DNA from: a virus
Strand: one strand, 5' to 3'
Length of the DNA stretch: 64,000 nucleotides
IMG/VR virus record: IMGVR_UViG_3300023181_000028
Span: 1 to 64,000 of that record
Shown here: positions 5,902-29,366 of the stretch, piece after piece
Layout of the letters: the number at the start of each line of letters is the position of its first letter
Numbering within the stretch: the first letter of the stretch is position 1
Program-made: the position numbers and the translations under genes
Notes under the pieces: model-generated
What the model saw: the letters and a program-made list of their open reading frames with translations, nothing else
The model's database searches: none
What the model was told of the DNA's origin: nothing

Positions 5902-6474
5902 TTATTCTTTAGCCCTTAATTTATCTCTCCACGCATTATTTACCCGCTGGTTGACCTTATTAAGATCCTTTAAATACATCATTTTATTACTAATCCGGCG
6001 CTTCTTTTCAACTTCTGGCGGAATAATAGACTTATGTTTCTTAGGCTTGTTTTTAGATTTATTATGAGGCTTACGCTCTTTTGGGTTCTTTTTAGTTCTA
6101 CCCTTTTTATCCTTAGCATAAGGATTATATACTTTTAATTGAATATTGTAAAACGGACTTAGCTTATTAATTTCCCTTTGTTCCAAATCATATAGCCTAC
6201 TCCGGTCAAATCCGGCCATATATTCTAAATGACGCTCAAAAACAAAATTATCTAATCCATGTAAGTCGAAATCAGCTTGAAGTTTATAATTGGAATGCTT
6301 TTTATGACTCAGGGCTAGTTTATGGCAATCAAACCTTCTTTCAAAATTGCCAGTGCTTCCAATGTAAATGTTATTGTTAACCACGCACCGAATAATGTAA
6401 ATCCCTGATCTGTATCCGATATATTTCTTCTTCAATATCTTTCCAAGCAATCTATCGTAAACTACATCAGCCAT
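5902..6474 (-). CDS. GIY-YIG endonuclease (homing-type) with basic tail
   Basis: SGIYIIRC...IYIGST, R..H, LEQ..I, YN motifs. Confidence 0.9.
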   Translation of the reverse strand: MADVVYDRLLGKILKKKYIGYRSGIYIIRCVVNNNIYIGSTGNFERRFDCHKLALSHKKHSNYKLQADFDLHGLDNFVFERHLEYMAGFDRSRLYDLEQREINKLSPFYNIQLKVYNPYAKDKKGRTKKNPKERKPHNKSKNKPKKHKSIIPPEVEKKRRISNKMMYLKDLNKVNQRVNNAWRDKLRAKE

Positions 6475-6523: not shown

Positions 6524-7252
6524 TTAAAATCTATATTTATTGCAGCTTACAGCCATTACATAACCATTATGATAGTAAGAGTTTGGAATATCTTCCAGCA
6601 ACACTTTTACCTGATTCATGTTAGACGTTTTGATTATTTCTTTTCTGCCGTTAACGCAGAGAATAGAATTACTTTTCTTTAATTCTTTGATTCTATTATG
6701 TGCGGAACCAACGCTGCACCCTAACATGGATGCTATTTTACTCATAGATATGCTCATTAAGTCTTTTTCACCAGGTAACTTGTCTACATCTATATTCTTT
6801 CTTTTAACTGTCCTCTGAGCAGCTTTATATGAATTTAGATTTTGTGGGGTATGAAGGTCAAGGCTTAACTGCTTGTATCTATTAAATTGATTTTGCTTAT
6901 TCTTGAGAACTAGCAATTGAAGATCTTTGAATATTTGTTTTATACTATCAGCTATCTCAAACTTAACTATCACCTTTTTCTTATTGTGGTCAAACTTATT
7001 CAGCTTAACGAATAATAAATTCTTGCCGTGCATTTTACACCACCCGCTATTCAGAAATGATTTAATGTACTTACGGACGGCAGAAAGGCTTAGTCCAGAT
7101 TTTTCAGCTAATGATTTTTGGGTGTAATTGAAAACACAGGAATTAGAATAAAAAGACTTTAAATACAAAAACGCTGATAAATCTTTTAATCTTCCGCTTT
7201 TAGCGATAGCAATGAGATTTATTTTATTAATGTCTAAAGACCGATTATTCAC
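6524..7252 (-). CDS. two-HTH DNA-binding protein (replication-initiator/regulator-like)
   Basis: YTQKSLAEKSGLSLSAVRKYIK and ISMSKIASMLGCSVGSAHNRIKEL; GTG start. Confidence 0.75.
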   Translation of the reverse strand: MNNRSLDINKINLIAIAKSGRLKDLSAFLYLKSFYSNSCVFNYTQKSLAEKSGLSLSAVRKYIKSFLNSGWCKMHGKNLLFVKLNKFDHNKKKVIVKFEIADSIKQIFKDLQLLVLKNKQNQFNRYKQLSLDLHTPQNLNSYKAAQRTVKRKNIDVDKLPGEKDLMSISMSKIASMLGCSVGSAHNRIKELKKSNSILCVNGRKEIIKTSNMNQVKVLLEDIPNSYYHNGYVMAVSCNKYRF

Positions 7253-7887: not shown

Positions 7888-8199
7888 TTAAATAGTGTAT
7901 TTCCACCTTTTTTTATGTTTGTTTTCCCTCTTAACAGGTATTGTATAACTAACTCCAATTACAAATCCACCTACAGCAGCACCCCATATTGTACTAAATG
8001 GGTCTTTAGGAGTGAAAATAGACACTGAGCATCCAAGAGCAGTGGAGCAGATAGTTCCCATTATAGGATGATCTGTTTGTTTTCTGAATATTAATCCTGA
8101 TGTTACCGTCACGCCGCACCCGAAGTAATTGAATAGTTTGCCTTGGGGGAACTGCGCGGATAATCTTAAACATATCAGCATTAACACAGCCGTTCTCAT
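7888..8199 (-). CDS. membrane protein
   Basis: signal-like N-terminus and Gly-rich hydrophobic segments. Confidence 0.65.
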   Translation of the reverse strand: MRTAVLMLICLRLSAQFPQGKLFNYFGCGVTVTSGLIFRKQTDHPIMGTICSTALGCSVSIFTPKDPFSTIWGAAVGGFVIGVSYTIPVKRENKHKKRWKYTI

Positions 8200-8339
8200 C
8201 CGTAAATAACTCTTAGGTAAGCTAAATAAAGCTCCAAATTGAAATGACCGGGCTTACAATCATTATTATCACTTTCCCAGAACCTTTTTGCTACATCTAT
8301 ATTAAATGGATGTTGTGTGGGTTGTAAATTAGTGTCCAT
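8196..8339 (-). CDS. small hypothetical protein (47 aa, MDTNLQPTQHPF...), not in ORF track
   Basis: read manually; ATGA overlap with next gene; follows ECF-like promoter. Confidence 0.65.
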   Translation of the reverse strand: MDTNLQPTQHPFNIDVAKRFWESDNNDCKPGHFNLELYLAYLRVIYG

Positions 8340-8366
8340 AGCTTGATTTTATTGGTTTATAAGAGG

Positions 8367-8395
8367 TTTTACGAAAAACATATATAAAGGTTGCA
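8367..8395 (-). promoter_or_regulatory. ECF-like promoter TGCAAC-N16-CGTAAAA
   Basis: motif copy at head of leftward arm. Confidence 0.8.
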
Positions 8396-8615
8396 TTTAT
8401 TATTCAAATAGGCTTAAATACAGGGTTTATGTCATTAAACAGGGTAAAAGATTATGCCATTATTTTTATTATACAATTCTATTGCTTTTATCGGGGCCAT
8501 TCGGCGGAACAAGAAATAAATTATGCTCTATTATCATTGGGGCTATTTCAGGGTTAAAACGTATAAAATCAATTCAAATTTATTATTGAAGGTAGTAAAA
8601 TAGTAGTTAAAGATG

Positions 8616-8623
8616 TATATTTG
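8616..8623 (+). promoter_or_regulatory. Bacteroidota sigmaA -7 element TATATTTG
   Basis: matches TAnnTTTG. Confidence 0.6.
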
Positions 8624-8627
8624 CATT

Positions 8628-8712
8628 CAACAGAGACTTAGTCATGCTCGATCTCAGTTATGTTTTGTTGGTTCAAACAGGATAAATCCCGGCTAAATAC
8701 TGGGATTTTTTC
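8628..8712 (+). ncRNA. candidate ~85-nt small RNA
   Basis: bounded by -7 element and intrinsic terminator AAATCCCGG..CTGGGATTTTTT (8684-8711); 5' hairpin CAACA/TGTTG. Confidence 0.55.
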
Positions 8713-8717
8713 TTTTA

Positions 8718-8747
8718 TGCAACCTTTTGCAACTTCCGCGCGTATAA
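8718..8747 (+). promoter_or_regulatory. ECF-like promoter TGCAAC-N17-CGTATAA
   Basis: motif copy at head of rightward arm. Confidence 0.8.
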
Positions 8748-8772
8748 CTATTAACTTTTAAAACATAAAATT

Positions 8773-9522
8773 ATGCAGAAGAAAAAACAGGTTATAATGC
8801 TGCCTACAGATAAAGCAAGTAATATTTTATTATATCCTAAAGAGTTTAAAATAAACTACAGCAAAGTTCCTTGTTTTGGATTTGAAGAACAGATGTTAGC
8901 TCAACATCTATACATTCTATCAGATGAAGAAATAAAAGAAGATGATTGGTTTATTGAATGCATAGATAATGGTAGTGTAAATGCACCACATTATAGTATT
9001 AATAAGATGATTAATCCTAAATATTCAATTGAAGAAGAAACTTATTCAGCAATTGGAATAAATGGAGATGAACATACTTGTGGATATCACAATACTAAAA
9101 AAATAATAGCAACTACTAATTCTGAATTATTAGAACATTCTTTAACAAGAGAAATAAATGGATTTAGTGGTCATATTCCCCTGCCTAGAATATCTCAAGA
9201 CTTCATTGAAGCTTATATTAAATCATATAATGAAGGTAATGTGATTAAAGATGTAATGGTAGAGTACAAAGAAATAGTAGATGAAGTAGGAAGAGATAAA
9301 TTATCTAGCGGCGGAACGATAGGAAGATATTCGGTTAAAAAGAATCTTAAAATCAGATCTGATAACACTATTATAATCAATAGGGTTAAAGAAAAGAAAT
9401 ATACAGCAGATCAAATGAAAGAATTTGCCATAGCCTGTTGTTATGCTTCTCAAATTGATGGCGATCACAAATCAACTTTAGACATTGTGAATAACGCCTT
9501 CGATAAAAATTATCCTGAATAA
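8773..9522 (+). CDS. conserved Bacteroidota-phage hypothetical protein
   Basis: QHLYILSDEEIKEDDW...KKIIATT...LPRISQDFIEAY motifs. Confidence 0.8.
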   Translation: MQKKKQVIMLPTDKASNILLYPKEFKINYSKVPCFGFEEQMLAQHLYILSDEEIKEDDWFIECIDNGSVNAPHYSINKMINPKYSIEEETYSAIGINGDEHTCGYHNTKKIIATTNSELLEHSLTREINGFSGHIPLPRISQDFIEAYIKSYNEGNVIKDVMVEYKEIVDEVGRDKLSSGGTIGRYSVKKNLKIRSDNTIIINRVKEKKYTADQMKEFAIACCYASQIDGDHKSTLDIVNNAFDKNYPE

Positions 9523-9543
9523 TTAATTATAAAATCAATAAAA

Positions 9544-9729
9544 ATGGAAAAATACCTGTTACCCTTGTTTATTTATTACTTCTTTGCGTTATTAATAATT
9601 TCGGATGACAAAACTATTGATCGTGCGGCGAAAAAAGTATCTCATGCTGTTGATACTTCCGTATCGGATTACGCGGAGAATAACCTAATATCTGCTACAA
9701 TTAAACAATACAAAAACTATAAACCATGA
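9544..9729 (+). CDS. small membrane-anchored protein
   Basis: N-terminal hydrophobic helix. Confidence 0.6.
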   Translation: MEKYLLPLFIYYFFALLIISDDKTIDRAAKKVSHAVDTSVSDYAENNLISATIKQYKNYKP

Positions 9730-9866
9730 AAACTTATACAAAAGACGAAGTGATTAAATTAATCTATGCTTATGAAAACTATTTAATGGGAAGTATCGGA
9801 AGAGATGGTTATTATAATGGAATAGACTTCGTAGAAGAATTTCTTAAAGAAAACCCTATTAAATAA
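9726..9866 (+). CDS. small hypothetical protein (46 aa, MKTYTKDEVIKLI...), not in ORF track
   Basis: read manually; ATGA overlap. Confidence 0.65.
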   Translation: MKTYTKDEVIKLIYAYENYLMGSIGRDGYYNGIDFVEEFLKENPIK

Positions 9867-9881
9867 TAATTTGCAAATAAA

Positions 9882-9911
9882 TGCAACCTTATTACCTTTA
9901 CATTCGTTAAA
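9882..9911 (+). promoter_or_regulatory. ECF-like promoter TGCAAC-N17-CGTTAAA
   Basis: motif copy. Confidence 0.8.
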
Positions 9912-9936
9912 CATACAAGTTCTTTAAAAACATTTA

Positions 9937-10290
9937 ATATTGCTTCGGTGGCCTAAATATAGGTAAAGTGTTGTGAGGCTAGCGCACGAGCAAGCAAAGG
10001 GAATGTAAAGTCCCGGCCCACCGAACGCAATATGATATTTCTTGCTTGAAGATAAACAATAGAGCAGTACGATACTTCCTTTAAGTGGGAAATACGCTGT
10101 ACATCTATAATCTATATCCAATAGATGTTGTTTATTGTAGAGATAATACTTTATGTAGTGGAGCCTTGGCAAGTACTCAGAAATGAGGAGATGTGAAGCT
10201 ACATATTGTCGGATTATTCCTTTGGAAATGGGACAAGAGATAAGAGCATTAGTACCGCAACCTTTTTAAGGCGTAGAAGCGGGCTAATGT
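9937..10290 (+). ncRNA. candidate multi-domain structured RNA or long structured leader
   Basis: five consecutive closed stem domains in a region with no sense ORF, directly after a promoter. Confidence 0.65.
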
Positions 10291-10311
10291 TTCTTTTAAA
10301 ACTTAAAAATT

Positions 10312-10524
10312 ATGCAAACAGTAAAATATCATTTTAGTTTCTCCACGCAAAGCAAGGAGCCTATCACTGAGTCTCAGTTTATACGACTTATCAAATATCA
10401 AAAGAACTTAGACACTCTATTGATAAATGACTCAACTATATCTCAACAAAAAAGGCTTGCATTATGGGCGGAAAGTCAAAGAACAATTAAATTCTTAAGA
10501 AACTATGGGACTTATAACGGATAA
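10312..10524 (+). CDS. hypothetical protein
   Basis: 70 aa ORF with A-rich upstream region. Confidence 0.65.
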   Translation: MQTVKYHFSFSTQSKEPITESQFIRLIKYQKNLDTLLINDSTISQQKRLALWAESQRTIKFLRNYGTYNG

Positions 10525-10651
10525 ACCTTACAGAAGGTTAAACAGGGAAACCGGACTATTTGAATGGGTGTATCCTGAGCCAACTCAATACGATCAGAAA
10601 GACGTTCTTAAGCCTATTAAGATAGTTAAACCTAAAAGAAGGAAGAGATGA
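10505..10651 (+). CDS. small hypothetical protein (48 aa, MGLITDKPYRRLNRE...), not in ORF track
   Basis: read manually; fills gap; ATGA overlap with 10648. Confidence 0.6.
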   Translation: MGLITDKPYRRLNRETGLFEWVYPEPTQYDQKDVLKPIKIVKPKRRKR

Positions 10652-11061
10652 GTGTTTATGAGCAACGTATTGCCGCGCAACTCTATCATTTTTATGAGAG
10701 GTATAAAGAATACGAAGACCCTCTAAGCAGGTATCATTCACACTTGCATCTAGACCTCGTATTCGACCATTTAAAGGAGAGAAATAAGGAAATAGTGTTA
10801 GAGGGAGATATTAAAGATAAGTTGTGGAAAATGGCTATAATTGAATGTAAGGAACAACACGTCTCGTGGATGAAAGCATTAAAAGATAAGAGACTGGCTC
10901 AAACCGCAAAGGAATTATTAACGGCGGAAAAAATAAGATTTTTCAAGACATACATCACTAGATACTTCCTTTTAGAGAAACTAAAGGATGGTATATGGGT
11001 TCAGGTTACAGACGATGAAACAGGTAAAAAGGTTAGCTTATTAAGTTTTGTAGGGAAATGA
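10648..11061 (+). CDS. hypothetical protein
   Basis: 137 aa, coupled to helicase start. Confidence 0.75.
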   Translation: MSVYEQRIAAQLYHFYERYKEYEDPLSRYHSHLHLDLVFDHLKERNKEIVLEGDIKDKLWKMAIIECKEQHVSWMKALKDKRLAQTAKELLTAEKIRFFKTYITRYFLLEKLKDGIWVQVTDDETGKKVSLLSFVGK

Positions 11062-12617
11062 AAGAACTCCGCGCATACCAATCCGAATGTATAAATACGG
11101 TTCAAAATGAACTAATTTCCGGCATTTCATCTCAATTGATCGTCATGAGTATGGGGCTAGGAAAGACTTTCACTGCCGTTAAGATGACAGAACAGCTTGG
11201 ATTTAAAAGTGTATTATGGGTAACGGATGATGAGCGCCTGCTTGAGCAATCTGCATTAGCGTTCGCTTATGATAAGTTTGAACCTGAATTAGTGGAGAAA
11301 ATAGCTAAGAACGGCCTGCTTAATTACATAAGATCCGGCGGAACGTTCAATGGGTATAAAATGGGGGTTATCAAAGCAGACTTGTTTAAGCCTGATGGCG
11401 ATGTAGTTTTTTGTTCCGCGCAAACATTATGGCGGAGATTAGATAAGTTAGATCCTTACAAATACGACTGTCTCATAATAGATGAATGCCACCTCTTCGG
11501 AGCCAATACATTTTTTAAAGGTATTTCACACTTCCACCCTAAACTGAGGCTAGGATTAACCGGAACTCCATTTAGGAAAGACGGCATGATGCTATCTGAT
11601 ATATTCCAAAAGATTGTATTTGAATACAATATGTTAGAGGGTATTAAATCAGGGTACTTGTGTGAACTAGATGCAATCAGGATTAAGACAAATTGCTCAT
11701 TGGACGGAGTGCATACGCTGGCAGGTGACTTTAACGAAAAAGAACTATCTGATGAATTGAACACTTTGGCGCGTAACAACTTAATCGCTCAGTCTTATAT
11801 TAAGTACTGTAAGGGTCGCCAAGCCATCGGATTTGGAATTGATATACAACATTGCATTGATCTTGCAGAAGCCTTTAGACAGCACGGAATTAGCGCAATA
11901 GCCATATCCAGCGACGAGGAAAGAACCGGAGATAAGAATATTGGAATTAAACAATATAGAGAAGGGATAATTGAGGTTATATTCAGTGTTAATCTATTAA
12001 GTAAAGGATTTGACCATCCCGATACCGGATGCACAATAGCGGCAGCCCCAACTAAATCAATAGTAAGATATTTACAAGGGCCAGGAGGAAGAGGAAGTCG
12101 ATTGAAGTCCGCGGAATACGTTTCTAAATTTGGACAAAATTGTATAATTTTAGACGTGGTGGATAATACCACTAAACACAACCTTATTAATGCTTGGGAA
12201 TTAGACAAACAAAAGCCAGTTGAAGAAAGAACTTTTATAAGTCAGGATAAGAAAGATAAATTACTAGCCGTTCGAAATGCTACAAAAATATCCCACGAAA
12301 GAAAAGAGGATGAAATTGTTAAACTTTTGCAGATACCTAGACTCAAACTATCTAAGTTCTACACAATGTCTGATGATGCCACGCCCGCTCAAATAGAAGC
12401 GATCAAAAAATTTGGATATACTGATGAAGTTCATTACACAAAGTTTATGATAACCGAGATATTTGCAGCGCAGCCAGTTACACCATCTCAATGGGGATGG
12501 CTAAAATATAAGGGATATGATGTGTCGGGTAAAGTGATAACGCGCGGAGAGTTTGAAGCGGCAAGAAGAGAAGTGGAAAGAAAAGAAGAAAAGAGAAACC
12601 TTAATAAGAAATTTTAG
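11058..12617 (+). CDS. SF2 DExH-box helicase
   Basis: LRAYQ, MGLGKT, DECH, TGT, GFDHP, Q..GGRGSR motifs. Confidence 0.92.
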   Translation: MKELRAYQSECINTVQNELISGISSQLIVMSMGLGKTFTAVKMTEQLGFKSVLWVTDDERLLEQSALAFAYDKFEPELVEKIAKNGLLNYIRSGGTFNGYKMGVIKADLFKPDGDVVFCSAQTLWRRLDKLDPYKYDCLIIDECHLFGANTFFKGISHFHPKLRLGLTGTPFRKDGMMLSDIFQKIVFEYNMLEGIKSGYLCELDAIRIKTNCSLDGVHTLAGDFNEKELSDELNTLARNNLIAQSYIKYCKGRQAIGFGIDIQHCIDLAEAFRQHGISAIAISSDEERTGDKNIGIKQYREGIIEVIFSVNLLSKGFDHPDTGCTIAAAPTKSIVRYLQGPGGRGSRLKSAEYVSKFGQNCIILDVVDNTTKHNLINAWELDKQKPVEERTFISQDKKDKLLAVRNATKISHERKEDEIVKLLQIPRLKLSKFYTMSDDATPAQIEAIKKFGYTDEVHYTKFMITEIFAAQPVTPSQWGWLKYKGYDVSGKVITRGEFEAARREVERKEEKRNLNKKF

Positions 12618-12629
12618 TAAAACCAATAT

Positions 12630-13214
12630 ATGAAAGAAATAAAAGGATCTATATCCTACACATTACAAATCTCTGATTCCGGCGAATGGACAGTTACATA
12701 CGGAACAGAAGGTCAATCAGAAGAGGATTCTGTGCATAATGACATAGCTTCTCTTGTGATTGCTCAGAATGTTATGGAGCAATGCGCCGCCACTATGAAA
12801 CTTAATAAAGAATCATTAAAGGGCAGAGATAAGAAATACATGACCCAAAAGCTAGATAAGGTGATTGATGGTAGGTTTGGATTAAAACTTATCGCGGATT
12901 ACCTGATTGATTGCTATGAAGGCTATATGGAGTTCTTATCTAAGAAAGCGTCGGACAAAGAAGCTAATCCTAAAGCAGAACAAGTTACAATGACTGAGGA
13001 AGAAATTAAAATGGCTAAAGAAACCCATGACAGGCTCACTAACGAATTAGTTAAAGGAGTGTTGGATAAATATCCAGATCACGTAAATTCATATAAAGAA
13101 GGGCAAACAGGACTGCTGGGGATGTTCGTTGGAGAGGCTATGAAGGCATCGAAAGGTAAAATAGATCCAAAATATCTAAATAACATTGTTAAAAATCAAT
13201 TAGATGGATTATAG
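12630..13214 (+). CDS. protein with C-terminal GatB/YqeY-like domain
   Basis: VLDKYPDHVNSYKEGQTGLLGMFVGEAMKASKGKIDPK resembles the GatB C-terminal tail. Confidence 0.8.
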   Translation: MKEIKGSISYTLQISDSGEWTVTYGTEGQSEEDSVHNDIASLVIAQNVMEQCAATMKLNKESLKGRDKKYMTQKLDKVIDGRFGLKLIADYLIDCYEGYMEFLSKKASDKEANPKAEQVTMTEEEIKMAKETHDRLTNELVKGVLDKYPDHVNSYKEGQTGLLGMFVGEAMKASKGKIDPKYLNNIVKNQLDGL

Positions 13215-13386
13215 TGAGTTTATAGGTGCGGCATTGGCGGAACCTCTAGGGGATGGAATGTGGAATGTATATGCTAATGGTTTTGTAAAGATTAGTGATT
13301 GTTCCGGCGACACAGAGTTTGAAGCCAAAGAAGACGCTTGGAGATACATACAAAGACTTAAAGATAAAATAGATGAAAAAGATTAA
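13204..13386 (+). CDS. hypothetical protein
   Basis: 60 aa, overlaps neighbours. Confidence 0.65.
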   Translation: MDYSEFIGAALAEPLGDGMWNVYANGFVKISDCSGDTEFEAKEDAWRYIQRLKDKIDEKD

Positions 13387-13729
13387 ATTAGAAGAGCAAT
13401 TCCAATTAGGAGATCAGGTGTATCTCTACACTAAAAACGATGAAGGTAAGCCTATTATTAAATCAGTGGCATCCTCAAATGTAAAGAAAGAGAAAGAAAA
13501 GAAGGCTTTTGTGCCACCCACCCTGGCGGATGTAATTGTATTCTTTAATAAGAATGGGTACGATAATGAACTTGCTAAAAAGTTTTTTAACGGCTACGAT
13601 GTAGCTGAATGGAAAGACAGCAATGGCAGACAAATACATAATTGGCAACAGAAAGCCCACCAAGTTTGGTTTAGAGATACTAACAAACTACCCGTTAAAG
13701 AGAAACAAGAGTCTAAATTCATGTTTTAA
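13373..13729 (+). CDS. replisome-organiser C-terminal-like protein (putative helicase loader/partner)
   Basis: FVPPTLADV...AKKFFNGY...WKD..G..I.NWQ motif, directly upstream of DnaB. Confidence 0.7.
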   Translation: MKKIKLEEQFQLGDQVYLYTKNDEGKPIIKSVASSNVKKEKEKKAFVPPTLADVIVFFNKNGYDNELAKKFFNGYDVAEWKDSNGRQIHNWQQKAHQVWFRDTNKLPVKEKQESKFMF

Positions 13730-13731
13730 CC

Positions 13732-15144
13732 ATGCAAGAAGCACATAGTCTGGATATGCAGACAAAACTATTGGGGGTGTACATGGGTAATCCCGATGCA
13801 TTCTCTCATGTAGAAAACTTATTCAAATCAAACATCTTCACCACAACTATCTATAAACACTGTTTTAAGATCATTACAGCGTATCATGCCAAGAATATAA
13901 AGTCTGATATGAATATTATCTTAAACGCTCTTATAAAGGCTGGAATAGATAAAAAAGAGGCTGCTATGTCAGTGTCTAAGTTAGATGTTTACACCCACCT
14001 ATCCGCCGGACAAATAGCTGAATATGTTACATCCCTATTTGAAGAAGCCCTTACAAATGATCTTGTTCCCTTTATCGAGAATGTTGCCTCCACTACAAAC
14101 CCACAGAATGTATTTGAGAAGATAGGGGAGTTGAAGGATAAGATTAATCGCGTGGAGTTGACGGTTAATAACGTTAGCAAGGAAGTGAGTATTAAGACTC
14201 AGTTTAAAGAGGCGGTTAACAGAATTAAGAATTTAAAGACGGGTAAAATAGAACAAGCTGGATTTAGCTGGGGTATACCCTCTTTAGACAAAAAAACTCT
14301 TGGAATAGTTCAGGGGATCAACATTGTCGCGGCATCAAAAGGCGGTGGAAAATCCTCAATTTTGATAAATATTATCGTGGAGAACGTTGTAAAAAAACAA
14401 CTTCCTATGTTATTTTTCTCTATGGAGATGACTGCAATTGAAGTGCTAACAAATGTGATCGCTAACGTGCGTAGGATTAATTCTAAAGCACTTAGAACCG
14501 GACAAGTTGACGAGAATGACTTAATTGATATTGAAGCCATAGAGGGCAGATTAAATGAATCTTTTGTCATTGACCCCACCGGCGGAATAACCCACCAATA
14601 TTTTAAAGCGAAAGCAAGGGCGTTTAGAAAGGCTAATAATATACCAGATAATGAAACTATATTAGTGGCACTAGATTATTTGGGACTTATGAAAAATACA
14701 CCGGACGAGGCCAAGATGACTAAGGAAGAGAAGATAGAGCAAATATGCACCGAATTAATGTGTAGCTGCAAGGATGAAAATATCGCTTTAGTTAAACTTG
14801 CTCAATTCGGAAGAGAACTAGACAGGCGCGGTAATGATAGCTACGCAGTTAAAAACGATTCGGATAAACTAAGAGCTTTACGTCCTAAAATGAGCGATCT
14901 TAAGGGTTCCTCTGCAATTGAAAGTAATGCGGTTACTATTCTTTTACTATACAGACCTAGTTATTATGGGATATTAGAGTCGGACGGGAAAGACTTTCGC
15001 GGACTTTGCGAGATAAACATAGCAAAAGGACGGTACGTGAATCCTGAGCCTGTATATGTGAAATTCAAAGGAGAATATTCTTTATTTCAGGATATTGAAG
15101 AGAGTGAATCGGCAATACAATCAACAGAAGAACCTCCCTTTTAA
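13732..15144 (+). CDS. dnaB: DnaB-like replicative helicase
   Basis: ASKGGGKS, FSMEM, LDYLGL, LAQFGR, PKMSDLKGSSAIE, IAKGR. Confidence 0.95.
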   Translation: MQEAHSLDMQTKLLGVYMGNPDAFSHVENLFKSNIFTTTIYKHCFKIITAYHAKNIKSDMNIILNALIKAGIDKKEAAMSVSKLDVYTHLSAGQIAEYVTSLFEEALTNDLVPFIENVASTTNPQNVFEKIGELKDKINRVELTVNNVSKEVSIKTQFKEAVNRIKNLKTGKIEQAGFSWGIPSLDKKTLGIVQGINIVAASKGGGKSSILINIIVENVVKKQLPMLFFSMEMTAIEVLTNVIANVRRINSKALRTGQVDENDLIDIEAIEGRLNESFVIDPTGGITHQYFKAKARAFRKANNIPDNETILVALDYLGLMKNTPDEAKMTKEEKIEQICTELMCSCKDENIALVKLAQFGRELDRRGNDSYAVKNDSDKLRALRPKMSDLKGSSAIESNAVTILLLYRPSYYGILESDGKDFRGLCEINIAKGRYVNPEPVYVKFKGEYSLFQDIEESESAIQSTEEPPF

Positions 15145-15160
15145 AATAATTGCAAAATAA

Positions 15161-15189
15161 TGCAACCTTATTCTTTTTATCACGTTTAA
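15161..15189 (+). promoter_or_regulatory. ECF-like promoter TGCAAC-N16-CGTTTAA
   Basis: motif copy, intergenic. Confidence 0.8.
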
Positions 15190-15207: not shown

Positions 15208-15681
15208 ATGTTTAAAATATACAAACACAAACAAACCGGAAAAGCTATTAGGGCTATTCAAGTGACAAATGACTTCACTATAAACAAAGCATTCTCAGAA
15301 TTAGACCTTACAGGGCATAAGTTTAATATAGGTGACTATGTTATTGAGAATCCTAAGATGTCTCCCGGCAGAACCATATCTATTATGACTGCCGAGGAAT
15401 TTGAGGCTAATTATCAGGAAATGGATAGCAAAGAAGCCTCTGAATTATTAAGCGGCGGATGTTCACCTGTATTAACTTATAAAGTTGAGAATAGCAGACA
15501 GATTGCAGAGATCAGATATAACACTGAATCTAAAACTCTGGAAGTGGACTTTAAAACCGGAAAGACTTATGAGTACTACGAAGTGCCTAAGGATGTGTTT
15601 GAGGGTGTGAGACTAGCTGAGTCTGCTGGCAAGTTCTTTAATTCAAATATTAAATCAAACTTTCAATACAAACAAATCTAA
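15208..15681 (+). CDS. PGDYG-like domain fused to KTSC domain
   Basis: N-term IGDYVI...EEFEANY; C-term SRQIAEIRY...LEVDFKTGKTYEYYEVP...AESAGKFFNSNIK. Confidence 0.85.
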   Translation: MFKIYKHKQTGKAIRAIQVTNDFTINKAFSELDLTGHKFNIGDYVIENPKMSPGRTISIMTAEEFEANYQEMDSKEASELLSGGCSPVLTYKVENSRQIAEIRYNTESKTLEVDFKTGKTYEYYEVPKDVFEGVRLAESAGKFFNSNIKSNFQYKQI

Positions 15682-29337: not shown

Positions 29338-29366
29338 CGCAACCTTTATATTTTAATTACGTAGAT
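29338..29366 (+). promoter_or_regulatory. ECF-like promoter CGCAAC-N16-CGTAGAT, antisense to structural gene
   Basis: motif copy with no sense gene downstream. Confidence 0.6.

Follow-up and report, generated by a model that had tools for sequence, protein, structure and literature searches.

A candidate structured leader RNA ahead of the replication operon of an uncultured leaf-litter phage

Control of phage replication genes by structured leaders is known for a few model phages, e.g. T4, and to our knowledge it is almost unexplored in the phages of the Bacteroidota. A catalogue built from IMG/VR holds 10,006 candidates, including many cis-regulatory RNAs upstream of phage genes, 12 of which precede gp32-like genes (PMC10690425). 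The pseudoknot of T4 gene 32, the gene 43 operator of T4 and RB69 and these catalogued candidates all lie in the 5' leaders of DNA-replication genes in phages, are structured and could set expression; the T4/RB69 operators are tens of nucleotides long and bind the very protein that they regulate. A layout of promoter, folded RNA, hairpin with U-tract and long operon is found in HK022 put, in attenuators and in riboswitch leaders. By analogy, RNA II/RNA I of ColE1 also represents a long multi-hairpin RNA beside replication functions. The incompatibility loops of the ColE1 type differ between strains, as one hairpin does in the element described here.

The window, i.e. the whole stretch of 64,000 nt that was analysed, covers most of the 80-kb genome of an uncultured phage from leaf litter. 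The phage helicase resembles the helicases of Flavobacterium/Bacteroidota phages. The closest helicases overall, P0002 to P0011, are 60-73% identical to it, with P0002 at 73% and P0003 at 68-69%; their contigs are mostly Logan-only. A noncoding stretch of 397 nt (9915-10311) separates a phage promoter from the helicase/replication operon, for which stretch a preliminary description had proposed an undescribed large non-coding RNA of five back-to-back closed domains (D1 to D5, 9937-10290). In outline that proposal is supported: the stretch is noncoding, starts a few bases past a recurrent phage promoter motif, has no Rfam family, and has a counterpart in a covarying RNA of related phages that starts with the same 5' motif; the attached readings as a tRNA mimic, a decoy or a sigma decoy are unsupported. 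We tentatively favour, with slightly less than even confidence, a 5' leader that is noncoding and structured and some 380 nt long, which would be transcribed on the + strand from the promoter at 9883 into the replication operon. The element is probably related, though strongly diverged, to the undescribed helicase-leader RNA of the related phages, and its role is probably cis-regulatory. Compared with the T4/RB69 operators it is far longer and without sequence relation; unlike HK022 put, attenuators and riboswitches it matches no Rfam family, and D5, its terminator-like hairpin, is non-canonical; and in contrast to ColE1 there is neither an antisense promoter of either phage type opposite D2 nor an origin signature. 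The features are:

9872..9912, + strand: predicted promoter, with upstream TTTGCAAATAAA, -35-like box GCAACCTT (9883-9890), 14-nt spacer and -10-like box CGTTAAAC (9905-9912)
9917..9933, + strand: 5' motif AAGTTCTTTAAAAACATT, which would lie at the 5' end of the RNA or close to it
9937..10033, + strand: D1, with a multi-branch interior closed by a stem of 15 bp (7 + 8 bp and a single bulged C)
10036..10044, + strand: predicted 5' arm of a long-range helix, partner 10234-10242, pair probability 0.92
10052..10135, + strand: D2, basal stem ATAAACA/TGTTTAT (probability 0.91) around two hairpins
10152..10205, + strand: D3, a hairpin with a CUCA-GAAA-UGAG tip, pair probabilities 0.80-0.98
10234..10242, + strand: predicted 3' arm of the long-range helix, overlapping the 3' arm of the claimed D4
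10244..10298, + strand: D5, a branched hairpin GCATTAG..CCGC / GCGG..CTAATG, then TTTCTTTT
10294..10304, + strand: predicted 3' arm of a clamp with 9917-9929 (pair probability ~0.77), 8-18 nt before the first start codon
10312..10524, + strand: first ORF of the operon, 70 aa (ORF map)
11058-12617, + strand: SNF2/ResIII-type helicase (Pfam)
12630-13214: GatB_Yqey-domain protein (Pfam)
15208-15681: KTSC protein (Pfam), preceded by a further promoter copy at 15162

The ECF-like promoter, earlier placed at 9882, is confirmed as a motif (GCAACCTT-N14-CGTTAAAC, 9883-9912), with the AAC in the -35 element and the CGT in the -10 element that mark promoters of the ECF-sigma type. In the form G[CT]AACC[TA]T-N12-15-CGT it has 10 copies in the 80-kb genome, with spacers of 13-14 nt (GCAACCTT-N13/14-CGT); eight of these directly head genes on the same strand and two (29339 and 62858) point into minus-strand genes. 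The same motif, in the form GTAACCTT-N13-CGT, is present in five relatives (L084, L085, L088, L089 and L163). When the region was compared by blastn and nhmmer with about 160 loci, only the promoter was matched, over 45 nt at 78%, by the promoters of L085-L089. Judging from the motif, the copy at 9883 would be an active promoter. The noncoding stretch lies about 7 nt past its -10 box, and whereas at six other copies with a same-strand gene the distance from CGT to the start codon is about 25-45 nt, it is about 400 nt for the copy at 9883.

According to the ORF map a credible ORF is absent from 9915-10311, and the stretch is among the approximately five gaps of at least 180 nt without ATG-ORFs of at least 40 aa in the 80-kb genome. 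The sole long ORF across it (82 aa, minus strand) is frame-shifted by the D2 allele of the sister strain L162, which is 59 nt longer. The ORF map, this frame shift and the gap survey bear out the noncoding status that had been assigned to 9937-10290. The GC content is 0.40 (D1: 0.485) and thus higher than on either side, with 0.30 over 467 nt of upstream sequence and 0.36 over 489 nt of downstream sequence. The stretch might nevertheless encode one or more very small proteins, e.g. from a 23-codon hydrophobic ORF at 10125-10196 (MLFIVEIILYVV...) or a 43-aa TTG ORF at 10206-10337, but we hold this to be highly improbable: a small frame that includes hydrophobic residues is indeed open, and the leader of L085, behind the same type of promoter, has a 42-aa ORF with a hydrophobic tail, but AT-rich DNA is expected to contain frames of this length by chance, L162 is identical across the frame, and most of the 397 nt would lie outside such ORFs. 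The operon itself consists of three small ORFs, the SNF2/ResIII-type helicase, the GatB_Yqey-domain protein and a DnaB-type helicase, with overlapping starts (ORF map, Pfam).

The stems listed in the preliminary description exist where they had been placed (inverted repeats I7, I8, I10 and I13), and the minimum-energy fold yields D1, D2, D3 and D5. The proposal had been staked on a fold more stable than shuffled controls, and this was found: against dinucleotide shuffles 9937-10290 has a z of -2.70 on the + strand (0 of 100 shuffles as stable), and the full 9915-10311 has a z of -2.85 on that strand. On the - strand 9937-10290 reaches -3.15. The z values per domain, which are biased downward because the boundaries were picked post hoc at stem ends, are:

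D1: -2.9 on the + strand, -4.0 on the - strand
D2: -2.0 on the + strand, -2.8 on the - strand
D3: -1.6 on the + strand, -0.6 on the - strand
D4: -0.1 on the + strand, -1.8 on the - strand
D5: -1.9 on both the + strand and the - strand

Only D1 and D2 clearly beat the shuffled controls, D1 being more stable than all but one of 200 shuffles, and D3 to D5 are individually not significant. In the partition function high pair probabilities are found for D1 (0.98 and 0.89 for the stem, 0.98 for the inner GGGA/UCCC hairpin), the long-range helix, the base of D2, D3 and D5 (0.91-0.99). The D4 pairing (TTGTC/GACAA) has a probability of 0.03, and the long-range helix, which encloses D2, D3 and a small hairpin in both the minimum-energy and the centroid folds, is preferred; five closed domains in a row are therefore not the best thermodynamic model. 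Of the architecture first proposed, D1, D2, D3 and D5 were reproduced, and D4 gives way to the long-range helix.

Both strands fold equally well, and folding is uninformative on the strand that is used. The same observation, together with main stems of D1 and D2 that are pure Watson-Crick, would suit an element that acts as DNA, in which the inverted repeats are protein-binding or cruciform sites of an origin or regulatory region, possibly a transcription-activated R-loop origin. The helicase and DnaB genes adjoin it and the cumulative GC skew turns near 8100-8300, but the skew minimum and a set of divergent promoters lie about 1.5 kb upstream (8200-8770), 9860-10320 contains no direct-repeat families (iterons) and no AT-rich unwinding stretch, the region being GC-enriched, and a 15-bp stem around 66 nt with inner hairpins is atypical for a protein site. 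The G-U pairs and compensatory changes in the RNA of the related phages fit RNA as well, and we consider a DNA-level element quite unlikely.

This RNA, defined in the present analysis, is found directly before the helicase gene in three relatives (L082:3545-3990, L182:2503-2950 and L083:3747-3960) with helicases that are 48-49% identical to that of the window. It is 210-440 nt long and ends 35-250 nt before the helicase ATG (L082, L083). Among its 63 predicted pairs in the three sequences, 14 change on both sides, and 96% of the cells are paired, against 36-43% with the partners slid. Five columns keep G-U pairs, which favours an RNA on the + strand. The structure is thus supported by compensatory changes, and it is undescribed, without a match in Rfam 15 and the GenBank phages. 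With 14 compensated pairs within 210 nt, it is the more solid by-product of this work.

The link between the window and this RNA is formed by the 5' motif and the position. The 17-mer AGTTCTTTAAAAACATT is matched at 17 of 17 positions in L182 and at 16 of 17 in L082 (one A/G change), in each case at the start of the structured leader, and AATATTGC is common to the window and L083; in the 80-kb genome GTTCTTTAAAA occurs only once. In the window AGUUCUUUAAAA (9918-9929) is followed by AUUGC, which opens the first stem as in the RNA of the relatives, and the outer pairs of D1 (AUUGC/GCAAU) are common to stem P1 of the L083 RNA. The motif lies just past a promoter in all of them, the lengths are similar (260-440 nt in the relatives), and the order of the parts agrees too: a promoter at 9883, a leader to 10311 and an operon with the helicase at 11058. 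The core of the RNA is absent from the window, i.e. helices P2-P6, the invariant loops GGUUGAGGCU, AGCGUAGAAUAGCAUUAAU and UAGGUGCUACAC and a CCGUAA loop. Model R2, built from the RNA of the relatives, had no match in the window with default cmsearch filters; with the filters off the only local match was the 5' motif (11.3 bits, E 0.005), and the overall sequence similarity is at chance level. The promoters also differ, that of the relatives being Bacteroidota housekeeping-like (TTTG-N20-TAACTTTG) and that of the window GCAACCTT-CGT, and in the window three small ORFs separate the leader from the helicase, whereas in the relatives the RNA directly precedes it. A similarity of the 3' end to L082 (GCGTAGAAGCGG…) was set aside, since 14 of 17 matches are about what chance gives for such sizes and the pairing partners differ. 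A conserved 5'-3' clamp was rejected too: the one predicted in the window has a predicted analogue in L082, whereas the prediction for L083 is not robust.

Homologues of the element itself were found in one place only. A metagenome scan recovered L162, a near-identical strain that carries the only other copy, and L163-L165, without the element; L163 and L165, with helicases 58-62% identical, have no such gap. No homologue of the region was found by blastn in the GenBank phages, nor by BLAST and model R1 (D1 alone) in the whole records of five related phages and 16 loci. Exact-pattern scans of the viral collection with pieces of D1 and D3 gave chance matches only, in GC-rich coding DNA, and a scan with the 5' motif gave more than 120 chance matches and no new member. 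In the genome collection, helicase patterns found nothing and an 18-mer of the relatives' RNA gave chance matches only, one of them inside a Mucilaginibacter response-regulator gene. This lack of homologues of the element body, and a pre-helicase area that differs among all the relatives, being occupied by tRNA genes, by small ORFs or by other leaders, would also be expected of a long 5' UTR or recombination scar without specific function, in which chance hairpins and an ordinary terminator sit at a mosaic junction of variable gene content. Folding is in line with such a scar in so far as D3 to D5 are not significant and the 100-nt windows of the region are no outliers genome-wide: in a scan of all such windows for the composition-corrected energy residual from a regression, the D1 window (residual -2.4) falls outside the 20 best on the + strand. 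We nonetheless rate a scar as unlikely. Phage genomes are tightly packed and the stretch is one of very few gaps; it is enriched in GC, not decayed toward AT; D1 stands out against its own shuffles; and the unique 5' motif is shared, at the same position, with an RNA that is supported by covariation.

D5 has a folding energy of -12 to -14 kcal/mol, with an A/U-rich stem, a 20-nt branched loop and the tail TTTCTTTT. It was not called by the terminator scan because the loop is too large, and the T-rich tail of a terminator that was called, at 8684-8708 (TTTCTTTTAT), is nearly identical to its tail. From these properties D5 is possibly an intrinsic terminator or attenuator of a non-canonical kind. 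No other copy of the promoter motif is found on the + strand between D5 and 15162, and the replication operon therefore seems to depend on read-through.

Such read-through does not agree with a stand-alone RNA of about 380 nt that would run from the 9883 promoter to the U-tract of D5 and act in trans, as a decoy or sponge for a host or phage target, with D2 as its swappable specificity module. A unit with a promoter and a terminator-like 3' end but no ORF does look self-contained, and the D2 cassette is wholly exchanged between two otherwise identical strains; the RNA of the relatives, however, abuts the start codon of the helicase as a leader would, neither D2 allele is complementary to the genome beyond chance, and no known decoy family was matched. 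A trans-acting RNA thus appears rather improbable.

The exchange concerns the interior of D2 (10059-10115), which behaves as a replaceable cassette: both L162 and sequencing run X2 have, in place of its 57 nt, an unrelated sequence of 116 nt with an 11-bp inverted repeat of its own. The swap sits within an otherwise identical block of 1.7 kb, D1 included. The basal stem is kept in both alleles, and the allele of L162 folds too (z -2.8). Outside D2 the two copies of the element are identical and show no covarying pairs. This identity is no sign of selection, since coding DNA too has blocks of 580-680 nt without a difference. The stretch was found in two DNA sequencing runs, from the source sample and with the L162-type allele, and no RNA run was among those listed. 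The cassette was also considered as a repeated mobile element or an antisense guide, and both were rejected as neither a copy nor a complement is found in the genome or the loci. A diversity-generating retroelement (DGR) at the patch 9408-9475 was likewise rejected; the changes there are ordinary transitions.

For the structured 5' leader that we favour, the order from 5' to 3' would be a single-stranded AGUUCUUUAAAA, the closing stem of D1, a multi-branch domain closed by the long-range helix, which would carry D3 together with the peripheral hairpin D2, the latter freely replaceable, and finally the D5 hairpin with its U-tract. Such a leader could set the expression level of the operon in either of two ways: by conditional termination at D5, or by pairing between the 5' motif and the start region of the first ORF, which would thereby be hidden. 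Translation in Bacteroidota starts without Shine-Dalgarno pairing and needs unstructured start regions. A factor of the phage or of the host, bound to the folded part, might govern either switch. If the element and the RNA of the relatives belong to one family, they would make it possible to test whether a phage replication module is under RNA-based control, and the naturally swapped hairpin could reveal the dispensable parts. A wider and very doubtful extension is that in one group of soil phages of the Bacteroidota the replication operon begins with a leader RNA that is modular, evolves fast and keeps only the short 5' motif and the overall architecture, the swapped D2 being a specificity determinant, e.g. 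in replication incompatibility, superinfection exclusion or the evasion of a host defence that targets RNA.

Finally, the more specific functions and partners earlier suggested for the RNA found little in their favour. Rfam 15 gave no matches at the gathering threshold in the whole window and in 64001-80011, and at E up to 10 only chance matches to models of eukaryotic lncRNAs, miRNAs and snoRNAs (9700-10500). The tRNA mimic was not borne out: ARAGORN found no tRNA genes in the window and the remaining 16 kb, and the Rfam tRNA model (RF00005) had no match in 9700-10500 even at E up to 10. Like a tRNA, D1 forms a closed domain with several branches, but its closing stem is 15 bp long, two of its arms are 14 nt apart, and a T-loop is absent. 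Nothing at all was found that would point to an array of processed modules or to decoys for anticodon nucleases, and a retron msr-msd RNA was rejected for want of a reverse transcriptase (PF00078 was empty in the 80-kb genome and matched the control genomes). The promoter boxes with a collapsed spacer reported inside D5 are present (GCAACCTT - 7 nt - CGTAG), but with 7 nt this copy breaks the spacing rule; the octamer is expected in 354 nt by chance at about 0.004 (our own estimate from base composition), and being the sole basis for a sigma decoy it leaves that suggestion unsupported. The GatB_Yqey-domain and KTSC proteins are both encoded downstream, as had been noted, and their sole link to the RNA as partners is this position, at a distance of 2.3 kb and 4.9 kb within one gene block. 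As a separate observation, real tRNA genes do occur upstream of the helicase operons of L085, L088 and L089, where they are located before the promoter and outside the leader.

The stretch that separates the promoter at 9883 from the replication operon (9915-10311, + strand) is a genuine noncoding feature. Credible reading frames are absent from the stop at 9866 to the ATG at 10312, and the sole long frame in the element (82 aa, TTG start, minus strand, 9924-10172) is broken in a sister strain by a domain interior that is 59 nt longer. The source record, an 80,011-bp IMG/VR virus rated 100% complete (the window covers 1-64000), contains about five stretches of at least 180 nt without an ATG frame of at least 40 aa on either strand, and the element is among them. 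Its GC content, 0.40 overall and 0.485 in its first domain, D1, exceeds that of both flanks (0.30 over 467 nt on the 5' side, 0.36 over 489 nt on the 3' side). A reading as tiny ORFs could appeal to a 23-codon frame within the leader (10125-10196) with a hydrophobic beginning (MLFIVEIILYVV...); this frame is probably due to chance, and we consider such a reading highly improbable. A longer gap without ORFs, at 765 nt the largest in the genome, lies beyond the window (G000 74166-74930, equal to L306:10166-10930), and Rfam and tRNA searches of it gave no match.

Promoter-like motif and operon around the element
3938(-), 8394(-), 8719, 9883, 15162, 29339, 36268, 41420, 58890(-), 62858: copies of GCAACCTT-N13/14-CGT
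3' of the element: first operon genes, three small proteins (70, 48 and 137 aa) whose start and stop codons overlap
11058-12617: SNF2/ResIII-type helicase, operon downstream of the element
12630-13214: GatB_Yqey-domain protein, same operon
13732-15144: DnaB-type helicase, same operon
From 15208: KTSC-domain protein, after the DnaB-type helicase

The motif GCAACCTT-N13/14-CGT(A/T) occurs ten times in the 80-kb genome and is a putative promoter; 8 of the 10 copies directly precede a same-strand gene. A related motif, GTAACCTT-N13-CGT, was found in five loci of related phages (L084, L085, L088, L089 and L163), and the upstream part of the 9883 promoter is common to the L085-L089 promoters (78% over 45 nt). 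At six other copies with a following gene the distance from CGT to the start codon is about 25-45 nt; the 9883 copy is the exception, with some 400 nt between the -10 box and the next start codon. As the + strand holds no further copy of the motif from 9883 to 15162, the replication operon appears to be transcribed through the element. The copies at 29339 and 62858 face the 3' ends of minus-strand genes and may drive antisense transcripts. Elsewhere in the window a GIY-YIG endonuclease gene (5902-6474, minus strand) neighbours the gene of a 242-aa protein (6524-7252, minus strand) that has a pair of winged-helix domains and resembles sigma-70 region 4 in weak matches, a candidate regulator of the GCAACCTT-type promoters. 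L085 (6323-6745), like L086 and L087, has an arrangement that is analogous, not homologous, to the element. Its promoter belongs to this class too and shares 78% identity with the 9883 copy over 45 nt; behind it come a hairpin (about 90 nt, stem about 19 bp), an ORF of 42 aa whose tail is hydrophobic, and another folded region with z -3.0.

Predicted fold of the element (pair probabilities from the partition function)
9937-10033: D1, closing stem 0.89-0.98
10036-10044 / 10234-10242: long-range helix around D2, D3 and a small hairpin, 0.92
10052-10135: D2, basal stem 0.91
10152-10205: D3, 0.80-0.98
10206-10236: D4 of the preliminary description, 0.03
10244-10298: D5, 0.91-0.99
9917-9929 / 10294-10304: 5'-3' clamp, about 0.77

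The preliminary description proposed five closed domains. All the stems it named were located, and the fold is better than that of shuffled sequences (z -2.70 for 9937-10290, z -2.85 for 9915-10311). Taken singly, D1 (z -2.9) and D2 (z -2.0) are distinct from the shuffles, with boundaries chosen at stem ends; D3 (z -1.6), D4 (z -0.1) and D5 (z -1.9) are not. In the prediction D4 is hardly formed, and a long-range helix enclosing D2 and D3 is favoured; the description as five domains is therefore correct in part only. In a genome scan of all 100-nt windows D1 has a composition-corrected residual of -2.4 and is not in the top 20. The minus strand of 9937-10290 folds equally well (z -3.15), as a DNA-level origin or operator region might; no direct repeats were found in the element, and such a region seems distinctly unlikely. 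At the gathering thresholds of Rfam 15 neither the window nor the last 16 kb gave a match, and relaxing E to 10 added nothing but chance matches to eukaryotic models.

The proposed roles fared less well. ARAGORN reports zero tRNA and zero tmRNA in the whole 80-kb genome, and a tRNA mimic or a decoy for anticodon nucleases is unsupported. Between one and nine tRNA genes lie upstream of the helicase-operon promoter in three related loci (L085:575-2467, L088:1985-2056, L089:2992-3144); the phage studied here has zero. D5 does hold promoter boxes (GCAACCTT, 7 nt, then CGTAG), resembling the likewise CGTAG-ended promoters at 29339 and 62858, and the chance of the GCAACCTT octamer within 354 nt is about 0.004 by our base-composition estimate. 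Since the spacer is 7 nt instead of 13-14 nt, these boxes cannot serve as a promoter of the GCAACCTT type; the idea that D5 is a sigma decoy found no support. The GatB_Yqey and KTSC proteins suggested as partners are both genuine, but nothing links either to the RNA.

The phage DNA is present in two leaf-litter metagenome runs; no RNA run was listed as containing it. A near-identical phage is found in L162, a contig from a JGI metagenome, and in X2, the second of the sequencing runs. Over 8740-10463 the window and this sister strain are identical save in two places. Eleven substitutions relative to L162, mostly transitions, lie at 9408-9475 inside a 249-aa ORF; a diversity-generating retroelement was rejected for this patch, as the pattern is that of ordinary, mostly transitional mosaic divergence. 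The genome encodes no reverse transcriptase. In the D2 interior, 57 nt (10059-10115) are swapped for 116 unrelated nt, which include a separate inverted repeat of 11 bp. Both alleles retain the basal stem ATAAACA/TGTTTAT and both fold (z -2.0 in the window, -2.8 in L162); no copy or complement of either was found elsewhere in the genome, in the fetched loci or in GenBank phages. The D2 interior is thus dispensable or exchangeable, like the peripheral hairpins of many structured RNAs. Identity outside D2 is no sign of selection, because the coding DNA of these two mosaic genomes also contains stretches of 580-680 nt without a single difference; it therefore leaves no covariation to be read from the comparison. 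A functionless spacer would agree with the unexceptional rank of D1 in the scan of 100-nt windows; the scarcity of such gaps in the genome and the fold of D1 against shuffles speak for more, and we hold a spacer to be unlikely.

Pre-helicase regions vary among phages with 44-49% identical helicases, and in L163 and L165 (helicases 58-62% identical) the DNA is coding and the gap absent. In L082 (identical to L090), L182 and L083 a noncoding stretch lies immediately 5' of the helicase ATG:

L082:3545-3990, L182:2503-2950, L083:3747-3960: structured RNA of the relatives, directly before the helicase gene

On comparison of the aligned sequences this is a real, undescribed structured RNA. RNAalifold predicts 63 pairs in 210 nt, 14 of them with compensatory changes on both sides, from three sequences of two lineages and with the structure derived from the same sequences. 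Paired cells amount to 96%, against 36-43% with partners slid by 1-3 columns, and double changes to 14 against 2-3 in these controls; 0 of 500 shuffles reach the observed value. Five columns contain G-U pairs, which would be C-A on the opposite strand, and there are invariant loops, e.g. AGCGUAGAAUAGCAUUAAU. The alignment shows no small ORF that is conserved, and neither Rfam nor GenBank phages gave a match. An extra 3' part of about 230 nt is present in L082 and L182 and absent from L083. The promoter before the RNA in L182 and L082, read by eye, is TTTG-N20-TAACTTTG, which we take to be of the Bacteroidota housekeeping type. Just 5' of the RNA, L082:3200-3540 is AT-rich, and CTGATAA(T/A)T and TGTAA/TTACA recur in it; a regulatory or an origin function is conceivable.

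The relatives' RNA begins with (A/G)GUUCUUUAAAA, 1-2 variable bases and AUUGC starting the first stem; the equivalent in the window is AAGUUCUUUAAAAACAUUUAAUAUUGC, starting D1. The 17-mer AGTTCTTTAAAAACATT is shared without change with L182, and AATATTGC plus the closing GCAAT with L083. GTTCTTTAAAA is unique in the 80-kb genome, where it lies 7 nt past the -10 box; across some 1.3 Mb of fetched loci the 11-mer has only two further occurrences, in 2 of 13 related loci that were searched for it. Its rarity and its same functional position behind two promoter types make a chance match unlikely, and suggest that the motif acts in the transcript, not in promoter recognition. R2, the covariance model of the relatives' RNA, did not match the window with default filters; with filters off it aligned the motif alone (11.3 bits, E 0.005). 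Overall local alignment scores stay inside the shuffle range, and other shared 8-mers and a 14/17 similarity near D5 were dismissed as equal to chance expectation. The element is therefore a possible but undemonstrated relative; we give about even chances to its being a strongly diverged form of the same RNA.

The element probably represents an undescribed and rapidly diverging type of structured leader RNA with a putative regulatory function. Read 5' to 3', the predicted parts are a promoter, the 5' motif shared with the relatives, the folded body, a hairpin plus TTTCTTTT and, 13 nt further on, the first ATG; this layout, with no other such promoter for the operon, fits a cis-acting leader. 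The promoter and the terminator-like 3' end might also suit a discrete trans-acting RNA, which we regard as quite unlikely. As a leader, it could use D5 as an attenuator; a tool-called terminator at 8684-8708 has a T-rich tail (TTTCTTTTAT) nearly identical to that of D5. Alternatively, the 5' motif may pair with 10294-10304, 8-18 nt upstream of the start codon. Translation initiation in Bacteroidota relies on an open, A-rich start region, so such pairing would matter there. For L082 the prediction includes a comparable clamp; in L083 the prediction is not robust.

A close cultured phage is absent, as helicases of GenBank phages are all less than 32% identical; a large protein collection holds many relatives of the helicase (48-73% identity), one labelled 'uncultured Flavobacterium sp.'. 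The helicase genes of L164 (376-1626) and L165 (1731-4553; ORF of 940 aa) carry insertions of about 1.25-1.35 kb, and several database homologues of 860-900 aa bear intein or homing-endonuclease Pfam domains. Together these suggest that inteins occur in this helicase family.
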